This document shows positions 5,611 to 43,231 of a stretch of 64,000 nt of DNA, in pieces. This stretch comes from a virus (taxonomy: Duplodnaviria; Caudoviricetes), in IMG/VR virus record IMGVR_UViG_3300047160_000980, positions 5,947-69,946 of that record. The stretch is one strand, 5' to 3'. How positions within the stretch are numbered: the first letter of the stretch is position 1; every line of letters begins with the position of its first letter. A program made the position numbers and the translations under genes. The notes beneath the pieces are model-generated. The model did no database searches, was not told where the DNA came from, and saw only the letters and a list, made by a program, of their open reading frames with translations.

Positions 5611-7155
5611 CTAAAAATCCATTATAATTCCCGGGTTCTTGATCTCTTCGGGTTGTCCATATTTACCGTAATTTCTGAAAGTCTTTGCGACCTTTGAAGT
5701 CATCAACCATTCAATCGTCCTCAATTCAACTGGAAACTCCCACAATGCAGCAACGTGTGCCAGAGTAGTTTCCGCAGAAATTTCATCTAGAGGTGAATGA
5801 TTCAATGGTTCATGATCCATTTCCAGACAACGATCACCTGAAAGATTTACATTGACGATCCTGATTTCAGGGACCATTGCTCCTCTGTGGTATTGCTTTG
5901 AAAGTTTTTCTCTCAAAGCATAGAAGCCTGTTTGATCCTGAATGTTCTGAACTCTGTAATGTTGTCGTCCGTTCTTGTGTTCGACATGGAACAACTTGAA
6001 CTCTTTGACCACAGTCGGAGACAGGTATTGGGCAATGAACGAATCATCTTTGAAATTCACCATCGCATACTTGATTTCATCCACCCAATCCTTGCCGACG
6101 AGATCAGGAAAATATCGTCTGTCTTCCTCAGTTGGTTCCTCACACATGCGTTTGATATCTTTGAAGATAGCGAATCCCAACGCATACGGATTGATACCAC
6201 TGAAATACTTATGGTCGTAGTCTAGTTGTTTCAGAACACCGGTATGGCTCTTGAGAAAACTCATGTACGAGCCTTCGTCGATCAAGCCTTTTTCGAACAG
6301 TCTGGTAACGATGTAGTAATGGGTGAACGAAGCAAACCCTTCGTTCAGAACTTTCGTCTGTGTCTGTGGATAGAAATATTGAGAGATTTTTCTGACGATT
6401 CGAATGATTTCCCTTTTCCATTGAGGAAGCAAAGGAGCATTCTTTTCGATGAAATAGAGAAGGTTTTCCTCAGGTTCTTTAGGGAAACGCTCTTTCTTGA
6501 CTAGGTTCTTGTGCTTCTTGATTAGCTTTTCCCACATCGGATTGTAGTCCGATAGTTCTTTTTCAAACTTCTCCCAGGCTTCTTTCTCCTCGTCTTTCAC
6601 TCGCAATTTCTTTGGACGCTTGAACTTATCTACACCATAATTCGACAGAGCATGACAGGCATCAATAACAGCCTCTACTTCATCCTCACCGTATTTTTCT
6701 TCGCATTTGTGAATGTAATTCTTGGCGAAGTTGAGGTAATCGACAATTGAATCGGCATGTGTGTTGTCTTTGAACAGGTAATTGTTTTTGAACACTGCCG
6801 AGTGTCCGACACTTGCATGTGCCAAAACAAGAGTCTGCATCGTCATATCATTTTCTTCCATCAGATATGCAATACAAGGATTCGAGTTAATCACCAATTC
6901 ATAGGCGAGCGACATGCCTTGATCGTAGTTCTTTTTGTTCATTACGAAATCTTTACCGAACGACCAATGCTTGTAATAAACTGGCATGCCGATAGATGAA
7001 TAGGCATCCAGCATTTGTTCGGCTGACACAATTTCAATCTGTGCCGGATACCATTCCAAACGTAGTTCGTCGCGACCGATGATCTGAATTTCACTCCAGA
7101 CCTTTTCGATCAGGTCAAATGTCCAATCCTCACCGGATTTGAAAAGTAGACTCAT
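5611..7155 (-). CDS. spoVR: SpoVR family protein (YcgB)
   Basis: GMPVYYKHWSFGK, LAYELVINSNPCIAYLME, LVLAHASVGH, YFYPQTQTKVLNEGFASF, INPYALGF. Start trimmed to the ATG overlapping the yeaH stop (ATGA). Confidence 0.95.
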   Translation of the reverse strand: MSLLFKSGEDWTFDLIEKVWSEIQIIGRDELRLEWYPAQIEIVSAEQMLDAYSSIGMPVYYKHWSFGKDFVMNKKNYDQGMSLAYELVINSNPCIAYLMEENDMTMQTLVLAHASVGHSAVFKNNYLFKDNTHADSIVDYLNFAKNYIHKCEEKYGEDEVEAVIDACHALSNYGVDKFKRPKKLRVKDEEKEAWEKFEKELSDYNPMWEKLIKKHKNLVKKERFPKEPEENLLYFIEKNAPLLPQWKREIIRIVRKISQYFYPQTQTKVLNEGFASFTHYYIVTRLFEKGLIDEGSYMSFLKSHTGVLKQLDYDHKYFSGINPYALGFAIFKDIKRMCEEPTEEDRRYFPDLVGKDWVDEIKYAMVNFKDDSFIAQYLSPTVVKEFKLFHVEHKNGRQHYRVQNIQDQTGFYALREKLSKQYHRGAMVPEIRIVNVNLSGDRCLEMDHEPLNHSPLDEISAETTLAHVAALWEFPVELRTIEWLMTSKVAKTFRNYGKYGQPEEIKNPGIIMDF

Positions 7156-38209: not shown

Positions 38210-38502
38210 TGACGTTCAAACTCCGCTGGATATTTTGCGATCCAACGTTGGCGTCTTTCACATTCGCGTTTGCCATGACGTTCAGGAAGATATTTACTCT
38301 TGCCGGCAGCCGTCGAATGATACCAAAACTTTGCAGGTACTTTGAAGGCACCCAGCGATTCATAGATGTAATTGGCTAGTGTATCCTTGCGTTGTGAAGC
38401 CTGCATGGCCGCAATCTGCTCCATCACCTGCTCTGGTGTCATCGGAACTTCTTGCTGTTCTACCTCTTCAACAGCACCCGTCACGTTTTCATTCTGATCC
38501 AT
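38164..38502 (-). CDS. Hypothetical protein
   Basis: 112-aa ORF with RBS. Confidence 0.6.
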   Translation of the reverse strand: MDQNENVTGAVEEVEQQEVPMTPEQVMEQIAAMQASQRKDTLANYIYESLGAFKVPAKFWYHSTAAGKSKYLPERHGKRECERRQRWIAKYPAEFERQCLVQEKCKQKVASK

Positions 38503-38689
38503 GTTTCACCGTCTCCACTCTAACGATAATGTCTCCATCATAAGAGACAGGATTTTGCTGTGCAACGTAGAACGATTTGTTCAAATTAGGAACGACAACA
38601 TGACTACCAAACACAACACCTAAAAATTCATCGGCATCTTTTGTTTCATTGAAGCCTTCGATAATCACTCTAGCCATATGTTTCTCCAA
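38489..38689 (-). CDS. Hypothetical protein
   Basis: Small ORF with GGAG RBS. Confidence 0.55.
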   Translation of the reverse strand: MEKHMARVIIEGFNETKDADEFLGVVFGSHVVVPNLNKSFYVAQQNPVSYDGDIIVRVETVKHGSE

Positions 38690-38695
38690 AAGTAA

Positions 38696-38908
38696 AATGG
38701 CAGCCGTAACCAGGATTCTGTTCTATACTATGATTCATCTTTGCCCCGACCCGAAGTCTCCCCGAGTAGGATCGACAACTTCTGTTTGGGTTGCTCCACC
38801 CTCGTTTCAGTTTGATCGACTTTCGTCTCCTGAATTGCGGGTAAGGTCACTCTGTGGAGTCCTGAGTTTCCTCTGACCTATTCGATCAGCCATAGTTCGC
38901 TTGCCATT
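38696..38908 (-). ncRNA. rnpB: RNase P RNA, minimal (catalytic domain present, S-domain strongly reduced, no P18)
   Basis: P1 AATGGCA/TGCCATT; P2 ACTATG/CATAGT; P3; GAGGAAACTCAGG and ACAGAATCCTGGTTA forming P4 with a bulged U; CTCCAC/GTGGAG followed by CAA; P6 GAGTG/TACTC; L15 GGU; AGATGAAT. Confidence 0.85.
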
Positions 38909-38996
38909 CATAAAGCACGTAAATCAAATAACACATTCCCAACATGATTACAGTATAACAAATGTACCACCCAAAGTTATTGGTTGGCCGTCTCAT
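38886..38996 (-). CDS. 36-aa single-TM peptide overlapping the 5' end of rnpB
   Basis: AAGGAG RBS; MRRPTNNFGWYICYTVIMLGMCYLIYVLYEWQANYG*. Confidence 0.45.
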   Translation of the reverse strand: MRRPTNNFGWYICYTVIMLGMCYLIYVLYEWQANYG

Positions 38997-39010
38997 TTGT
39001 CTCCTTGAAT

Positions 39011-39084
39011 TGGTAGACCGCCAAGGTATTGAACCTTGTTCTGTAGGTTAAGAGCCTATTGCATCACCTTAATGCTTGCGGTCC
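39011..39084 (-). tRNA. tRNA-Lys(CUU)
   Basis: Loop CTCTTAA, GTTCAA, CCA; one mismatch in the anticodon stem. Confidence 0.9.
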
Positions 39085-39650
39085 GATGAAATCAATGCTT
39101 GTGGAACTTGAGGTACTAACATCGGATTGTTTGGATCGGGTTCGATCTTCGGGAACCTGTCTCTCAAAAGATCCGATCGAATTTCGTATGTGTCATCCTC
39201 GTCAGGGAAATCTGGAATTGGTCCGTCATGTGCTTTCTTACCATCAGGTTTCTTCTTTGAGAAGATTACACGTCCACCTTTAAGCTTTCGAGCCTTTGCC
39301 GCATTCAATTGTTCTTCCATGTTCTTGGAATATGGAATCAGATACAATCTGGAATGAGCACCTTCGTTGACCCAAACCTCGAACGAATTCTTTTTACCGT
39401 CTTTGGCGATCAACCGTGAATCCAGATATTCAAAGGTCTCTGGTAACTGGTGTGGATATGAAATTCCAATCGACCCTAAGAAGATATTGAATGAAAAGAA
39501 CGCGACAATGAATGCCAAAGGAATTGCCGCAAACTTCAAACCATATCGATCAGGTGTCTTGATGTAGACATAGGCCGTGAAAGCCGTCAAACCAACGATC
39601 CAAAGAATGAACGGGAGAAGCAACCAAAGTAATTGAAGTAGTTGCATCAT
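39069..39650 (-). CDS. Membrane protein, third gene of the MotA-like module
   Basis: Two to three TM segments, then a soluble domain; ATGA coupling. Confidence 0.65.
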   Translation of the reverse strand: MMQLLQLLWLLLPFILWIVGLTAFTAYVYIKTPDRYGLKFAAIPLAFIVAFFSFNIFLGSIGISYPHQLPETFEYLDSRLIAKDGKKNSFEVWVNEGAHSRLYLIPYSKNMEEQLNAAKARKLKGGRVIFSKKKPDGKKAHDGPIPDFPDEDDTYEIRSDLLRDRFPKIEPDPNNPMLVPQVPQALISSDRKH

Positions 39651-43155: not shown

Positions 43156-43231
43156 TGGTAGTACCGGTCAGAATCAAACTGACATGTTCTCCCGTATGAA
43201 GGGAGCGCTTCCATCATTCGGCCACGGTACC
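43156..43231 (-). tRNA. tRNA-Met(CAU), elongator-like
   Basis: CTCCC-TTCATAC-GGGAG anticodon arm, CCA. Confidence 0.88.

Follow-up and report, generated by a model that had tools for sequence, protein, structure and literature searches.

A miniature, type-A-derived RNase P RNA gene in phage tRNA arrays

A T4-like phage genome fragment encodes an RNase P RNA of about half the usual size, reduced to its catalytic domain and one remnant hairpin. RNase P RNA is the ribozyme that trims new tRNAs, and it is customarily regarded as a cellular or organellar ribozyme. The ribozyme is a known one; its half-sized viral form is new to the literature that we searched. The DNA analysed (hereafter the window) is a stretch of 64,000 nucleotides, positions 5,947 to 69,946 of the virus record IMGVR_UViG_3300047160_000980. 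Comparison with published RNAs leads us to consider it probable that the window carries a phage-borne, type-A-derived RNase P RNA that is active, works independently of the tRNA elbow and uses the RnpA protein of the host.

A catalytic domain in about 215 nucleotides

A search of 601 nt (38500-39100) with the Rfam model RF00010 (RNaseP_bact_a) matched 38692-38908 on the minus strand over model positions 1-367 (67.2 bits, E 2.7e-20). The same place was found when the whole 69,946-bp virus record was searched (E 7.4e-22), and RF00010 is the best RNase P-clan family for this RNA (cmscan keeps the best of a clan). A preliminary description, made from the letters of the window alone, had claimed a type-A-derived RNase P RNA here and had proposed a covariance-model search and a covariation analysis as checks. 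Both back the claim, though 67.2 bits falls under the curated RF00010 gathering score of 100 bits. Indeed, when Rfam is run on the window with its default gathering thresholds, it returns nine tRNAs only, and the RNase P match emerges with E-value reporting. Because the score lies below the cut-off, genes of this miniature type are left unannotated by routine annotation, and a class of RNase P RNA is overlooked wherever gathering thresholds decide.

The RNA differs from the RF00010 model by two whole-module deletions and no others. Only 8 nt stand in for the 106 model positions that follow P9 (P10-P14, including CR-II and CR-III), and no nucleotide stands in for the 24 positions of P18. The absence of P18 is also plain from CR-IV (AGAUGAAU), which begins 4 nt after P15. 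Both the missing P18 and a strongly reduced specificity domain (S-domain) had been claimed beforehand, and the alignment bears this out, with one hairpin remaining of the S-domain.

The catalytic domain is otherwise complete (Table 1). We checked every proposed pair in the 217 nt: P1, P2, P3, the P4 halves, P5, P6, the remnant hairpin, P15, P16 and P17 all pair standardly in the window. All the coordinates and motifs given for 38696-38908 in the preliminary description are found in the sequence with their pairs verified, including P1-P3, a P4 with compensated changes, P5, P6 and the GGU of L15. The three CR-I and three CR-V departures of P4 from the family consensus amount to three compensated pairs (C-G for G-C, and A-U twice). 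The L15 sequence CGGGUC (38748-38753) aligns with consensus CGGGUa, and its GGU (38749-38751) is the predicted partner of the tRNA 3'-CCA.

The remnant hairpin is built from the stems UUCAG/CUGAA, GA/UC and GAC/GUC and is capped by a GAAA tetraloop at 38821-38824. In type A RNAs L9 docks on P1; by analogy, this conserved GNRA-capped hairpin, docked on another helix, may brace the fold. We also considered a k-turn for its GA/GA motif and gave it up, since the two strands come in the wrong order. Nor do we accept the ORFs of 34, 40 and 75 aa in the interval as protein-coding. The folding-energy z-score of the window RNA is -1.69, unremarkable taken alone.

Table 1. Parts of the miniature RNase P RNA and its nearest neighbours, in window coordinates.
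Feature	Position	Strand	Basis or remark
Miniature RNase P RNA gene, whole	38692..38908	-	RF00010 match, 217 nt; P1-closed core 38696-38908, 213 nt
P1 5' strand, AAUGGCA then GC beyond a bulged A	38899..38908	-	pairs with 38696-38704; 9 of 9 P1 pairs double-changed in 16 homologues
P2 5' strand, ACUAUG	38891..38896	-	partner CAUAGU; 6 of 6 pairs covary, 96.7% of cells paired
P3 hairpin, CUGAUC-GAAUA-GGUCAG	38873..38889	-	RF00010 alignment; 5 of 6 pairs covary
CR-I, GAGGAAACUCAGG	38861-38873	-	P4 partner is CR-V
CR-I with P4 5' strand, GAGGAAACUCAGGA, bulged U at 38865	38860..38873	-	RF00010 consensus save three positions, each compensated in CR-V
P5 5' strand, CUCCAC	38854..38859	-	partner GUGGAG; 5 of 6 pairs covary; re-predicted on the MAFFT alignment
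P6 pseudoknot 5' strand, GAGUG	38848..38852	-	partner UACUC, 38764-38768
Specificity-domain remnant: short P7-like stem and one bent hairpin	38800..38847	-	hairpin stems covary (including P9, RNAalifold)
P5 3' strand, GUGGAG	38794..38799	-	followed by CAA (J5/15) at 38791-38793
P15-P16-P17 arm with L15 internal loop	38745..38790	-	RF00010 alignment, covariation, RNAalifold
P6 pseudoknot 3' strand, UACUC, the P17 loop	38764..38768	-	pair check; homologous columns
CR-IV, AGAUGAAU	38733..38740	-	4 nt past P15
P2 3' strand, CAUAGU	38727..38732	-	pair check and covariation
CR-V with P4 3' strand, ACAGAAUCCUGGUUA	38707..38721	-	RF00010 alignment, covariation, RNAalifold
P1 3' strand, GC-UGCCAUU	38696..38704	-	AAUGGCA (38908-38902) against UGCCAUU (38702-38696)
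tRNA-Lys(CUU), CCA-encoding	39011..39084	-	102 nt upstream of the RNA, same strand
36-aa hydrophobic ORF, AAGGAG ribosome-binding site	38886..38996	-	last 23 nt overlap P1-P3 of the RNA; status uncertain

Diverged homologues and a fold under selection

The miniature RNA has relatives on viral and metagenome contigs. They are too diverged for blastn: with the window RNA and three homologues (L002, L033 and L006) as queries, nothing useful came back from 50,697 phage records. Among viral contigs, a strict DNA pattern likewise had no match. A size-constrained motif pattern, GAGGAAANTCNGG-(100-130)-AGATGAAT-(5-25)-ACAGAA, gave four further IMG/VR contigs of 89-191 kb and matched 17 metagenome contigs. 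Each of the four IMG/VR contigs has an RNase P-clan match of about 200-220 nt among many tRNA genes (RF00010 in three, RNaseP_arch in L002), and one homologue, L005, scores 118.5 bits and so exceeds the 100-bit gathering cut-off. We then turned the window sequence and its structure, with the pseudoknots P4 and P6 omitted, into a covariance model, R1. It matches 14 of 15 new loci (23-108 bits, G+C 0.31-0.67), most of which are part of a tRNA array or border on one; the arrays have up to 28 genes. Altogether the viral and metagenome contigs hold about 16 distinct homologues of roughly 190-230 nt, mostly in tRNA gene arrays, plus longer intermediates, and S-domain loss recurs in very different phages.

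Phage RNase P RNAs span a range of sizes: without the size constraint, the pattern also finds RNase P RNAs with longer spacing on phage contigs. Two viral RNAs are of intermediate size, 279 nt in L006 (8628-8906, +) and 294 nt in L014 (3401-3694, +), and one of these two contigs is a complete 167.8-kb genome with terminal repeats. Their sizes suggest a graded series of S-domain reduction. Two other phage contigs have further matches within their tRNA clusters: L002 9612-9801 (-) resembles a group I intron weakly (32 bits, E 1.7e-4), and L003 835-921 (+) matches the tRNA-Sec model at 48.5 bits against a cut-off of 47.

One homologue belongs to a cultured phage. In Stenotrophomonas phage DLP6 (KU682439.2) a 249-nt RNase P RNA at 105774-106022 (+) (L036 1501-1749) lies in the tRNA cluster, where the stretch that separates a hypothetical CDS from tRNA-Arg carries no annotation (RF00010 54.7 bits, E 3.3e-17; R1 54 bits). 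It has an unusual P4, GAAGUUCGCG with CGCGGCU, and AGAUAAAU as CR-IV. The 3' end of the DLP6 RNA lies 3 nt before tRNA-Arg, and the gap to the 5' end of the following tRNA is 1 nt in L002 and L022 and 5 nt in L032. With gaps of 1-5 nt, RNase P cleavage at the tRNA would form the ribozyme's own 3' end, an arrangement that does not apply to the window.

Cellular genomes almost lack the small form. Among the genomes of 185,579 species the size-constrained pattern has one match, in Achromobacter anxifer LMG 26857 (NZ_CAHLAR010000005.1, L038). At 210 nt and 101.7 bits with R1, this member is surrounded by tRNA genes, in an array of 32 that spans 6.4 kb (L038 1460-7859). Neighbouring genes encode an RNA ligase, a coupling protein of the TrwB/TraG type, a GyrB-like protein and a protein with RCC1 repeats (L038, L041, L042). 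The array, in a cultured type strain, apparently lies on a conjugative element. A. anxifer also has a normal 405-nt rnpB (202 bits) on a different contig, so that the small RNA is an accessory travelling with mobile tRNA arrays rather than a replacement for the cell's enzyme.

The homologues covary. Plain MAFFT alone misaligned most helices, and we therefore used an R1-guided alignment of 16 sequences, which is biased toward the modelled helices, with P4 and P6 lying outside the model. In that alignment 92.2% of 753 pair cells are standard, compared with 29-41% after a shift of the 3' partners by one to three columns. Both sides have changed in 45 of the 61 pairs, each helix has 80-98% of its cells paired with compensatory changes, and none of 500 shuffles attains any of the observed measures.

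Support extends to the two helices that R1 does not model. In P4, two pairs covary (CG in 7 sequences and GC in 7; AU in 8, GC in 5 and CG in 2) and the other pairs are invariant. The P6 columns can be aligned in four sequences: GAGUG/UACUC in the window, GAGCG/UGCUC in L033, GAACA/UGUUC in L031 and one imperfect pairing. More distant members (L026, L032, L020 and DLP6) have P6 equivalents of 8-9 bp in the same two places, just after P5 and in the apical loop of the P16/17 arm: GCAAAGGA/UCCUUUGC, GUAAGAGA/UCUCUUAU and ACUGCUUAC/GUGAGCAGU, with GUGAGAAU/GUUCUCAC in DLP6. Shuffles do as well as these four pairings, in that order, in 18, 71, 21 and 118 of 2000 cases. Taken alone, the 5-bp P6 of the window does not stand out from chance (1281 of 2000 shuffles do as well), so its support comes from positional homology and from the longer P6 helices of its relatives.

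A check free of any model gave the same picture. RNAalifold, run on a plain MAFFT alignment of eight members, recovers P1, P3, P4, P5, P9, P15 and P16, and double changes preserve 22 of the 38 predicted pairs. Judged from these alignments, the fold is under selection as an RNase P catalytic domain, because covariation includes the unmodelled P4 and P6 and because the model-free prediction recovers the helices.

Genomic setting and proposed role

The virus record is a T4-like phage fragment with a CheckV completeness of 39%. The DNA polymerase shares 44% identity with gp43 of T4-like cyanomyoviruses, and there are phage-family matches for the helicase, the ribonucleotide reductase and the SbcC-like genes. 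Several soil metagenomes contain near-identical DNA at low depth; the sequencing runs listed for it are all of soil DNA, with no RNA run among them, and four of these runs gave four short, identical, low-depth contigs with zero variants. A 234-aa neighbour protein used as a query retrieved no related phage and hence no close syntenic relative.

Ten tRNA genes lie in the window, all on the same strand, and all ten encode 3'-CCA. Eight have ordinary elbow motifs. The other two, an amber-suppressor tRNA (CUA) and one tRNA-Met (36012-36082 and 43159-43231, both -), have UUU for UUC in the T-loop (U for C56), and the amber suppressor is also without the D-loop GG. The nearest likely substrate, and likely co-transcript, is the tRNA-Lys of Table 1. 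We found no promoter-like or terminator-like site in the flanks of the RNA gene. The RNA is most likely cut from a long transcript.

The 36-aa ORF that overlaps the RNA has two N-terminal arginines, a 20-residue hydrophobic stretch and a stop codon inside P2/P3, and it matches no Pfam family; should the ORF be real, its translation would be in competition with processing of the RNA. The ribosome-binding site of the next ORF comes about 3 nt past the RNA end. Some 1 kb downstream of the RNase P RNA is a gene for a 485-aa protein with DUF2828 and DUF7788 (TROVE/vWA, Ro-like; 36302-37759, -), preceded by a perfect 12/12 sigma-70 promoter match at 37985-37957 (-).

An RnpA gene (PF00825) is absent from the window's 39%-complete record and from five related virus records, which include a complete genome of 167.8 kb with terminal repeats. 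This is consistent with the suggestion in the preliminary description that the phage probably borrows host RnpA. A host partner is the simplest reading; given a record that is 39% complete, a different phage protein could still take that place.

We infer that the RNA is transcribed, that it assembles with host RnpA and that it is catalytic. In the RNA, the catalytic domain (P1-P5, with the bulged U of P4, P6, P15-P17 with its GGU, CR-I, CR-IV and CR-V) is complete, and P10-P14, which read the T-loop/D-loop elbow of the tRNA, have been lost together with P18. According to the mechanism that we propose, it would be co-transcribed with the phage tRNA genes, would assemble with host RnpA and would then cleave the 5' leaders of phage pre-tRNAs. 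Its contacts with the substrate would be the acceptor stem, the -1 nucleotide or leader, and the encoded 3'-CCA, leaving the elbow unread. The phage would thereby gain a tRNA-maturation capacity of its own during infection. Phages carry other translation-related genes (tRNAs, synthetases and tmRNA), which this ribozyme would join.

We rate an active ribozyme as most likely because the phage RNA repeats the design of published active RNAs: the S-domain and P18 are gone, and P6 is conserved. What the phage would gain is not obvious, since engineered S-domain-less RNAs are about 100-fold less active and host RNase P is probably still there. In an alternative reading, the ribozyme is active but elbow loss is itself the purpose, and the RNA would cut substrates with which the host enzyme copes poorly: tRNAs with odd elbows, packed arrays, tRNA-like or non-tRNA RNAs, or its own 3' end. 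The amber suppressor and the tRNA-Met of the window, with U for C56 and, in the suppressor, no D-loop GG, would suit such an enzyme, as would the RNAs that abut a tRNA and might release themselves by cleavage (L002, L022, DLP6 and L032) and the repeated loss of the S-domain across very different phages. We nonetheless hold this altered specificity to be unlikely: eight of the ten window tRNAs have ordinary elbows, no specific alternative substrate was identified, and the tRNA dimers of T4 are processed by host RNase P (PMC11143913). A wider proposal, which we think rather unlikely, is that large phages and conjugative elements spread a portable tRNA maturation kit together with their tRNA arrays. 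Its ribozyme, purposely devoid of elbow recognition, would capture host RnpA, free itself from the array with a cut at the adjacent tRNA and mature tRNAs that the host enzyme rejects or processes slowly, for instance suppressors with odd elbows. If so, a mobile tRNA set would work in any host, even under host defences that target tRNAs.

The RNA might instead do no useful catalysis. As a decoy or hijacker, it would bind host RnpA or pre-tRNAs, titrate RnpA away from M1 RNA and disturb host tRNA maturation. In the bacterial holoenzyme, as seen in the T. maritima structure, RnpA contacts P3, CR-IV/CR-V and P15, and these regions are kept in the phage RNA, while the phage records examined have no rnpA of their own; for an inactive RNase P-like RNA of a poxvirus, a possible decoy role has been raised (PMC3001073). 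Yet a protein sponge would not need all of the bulged U, the P4 geometry, the CCA-binding GGU and P6, which are under selection, and a block of RNase P would hurt the tRNA-carrying phage itself. We regard a decoy as highly unlikely. A non-functional remnant of a captured host rnpB, or a chance resemblance, is strongly disfavoured and, to our minds, scarcely credible. The score below the Rfam gathering cut-off and the modest folding z-score would fit such a relic, but the E-value of 2.7e-20 would not, nor would compensatory changes throughout some 16 diverged homologues of 31-67% G+C. Moreover, the deletions are precise, remove whole modules and leave their junctions intact, and the small form is nearly absent from cells, the single match among 185,579 species being on a mobile element. 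Our preferred reading is still an active, elbow-independent ribozyme that works with host RnpA. Having a member in the cultured phage DLP6 makes activity, protein partner and the benefit of elbow-independent cleavage testable now.

Relation to known RNase P RNAs

In a full-text literature search that covered few subscription journals, we found no description of a phage-encoded or an S-domain-less bacterial-type RNase P RNA, in agreement with the preliminary description, whose author knew of no characterisation in a phage. In a 2024 RNase P review, phages come up only because they supply tRNA substrates (PMC11143913). Two tools for finding rnpB leave viruses unmentioned, and one of them places the minimal T type in Thermoproteaceae only. 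No such gene is reported in a study of RNase P RNA and tRNA clusters in mycobacteria.

The one viral precedent in the literature searched is the RNase P-like RNA of camelpox, an orthopoxvirus, which has some similarity of secondary structure and does not cleave pre-tRNA in vitro (PMC3001073). The phage RNA, unlike the camelpox RNA, is a clear homologue in both sequence and structure and has all the conserved regions of the catalytic domain (C-domain).

With type A RNA (E. coli M1 RNA, rnpB, RF00010) the phage RNA shares CR-I, CR-IV, CR-V, P1-P5 with a bulged U in P4, P6, and P15-P17 with the L15 GGU, as well as a P7 stem and a GNRA-capped hairpin. It differs in length (about 215 nt rather than 350-400) and in having no P10-P14, no CR-II or CR-III and no P18. 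It also differs in being encoded by phages beside tRNA genes, and in one cellular genome it is a second copy beside a normal rnpB.

Archaeal type T RNA is a natural parallel in design: it is of similar size, keeps the catalytic domain and has lost most of the specificity domain (PMC3579882). It is reported to be active in this state (PMC7191817; PMC3579882). The catalytic domain of type T is nevertheless of the archaeal type, its P2 is 3 bp long, and several archaeal proteins are its partners (PMC3579882); it is also the sole RNase P RNA of its cell. In the phage RNA P2 has 6 bp, and the bacterial model gives the best score. On these grounds the resemblance is one of convergence, not membership. 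Evolution has thus arrived at a minimal form independently of type T, and a conserved, half-sized viral form would be a natural experiment on the minimal RNA for RNase P catalysis.

That form matches what has been made in the laboratory by deleting the S-domain and P18. On model substrates, cleavage by the isolated E. coli C-domain is about 100-fold slower than by full-length M1 RNA, with or without the C5 protein; once the S-domain is gone, deletion of P18 costs nothing and a P6-type pairing is needed for efficiency (PMC5839562). The constructs Eco CP RPR and Eco CP RPRdelP18 are like the phage RNA in having the catalytic domain only, a dispensable P18 and a P6-type pairing (PMC5839562). They are laboratory deletions without the P7 stem and the GNRA hairpin, whereas the phage RNA is a natural, conserved gene that has both.
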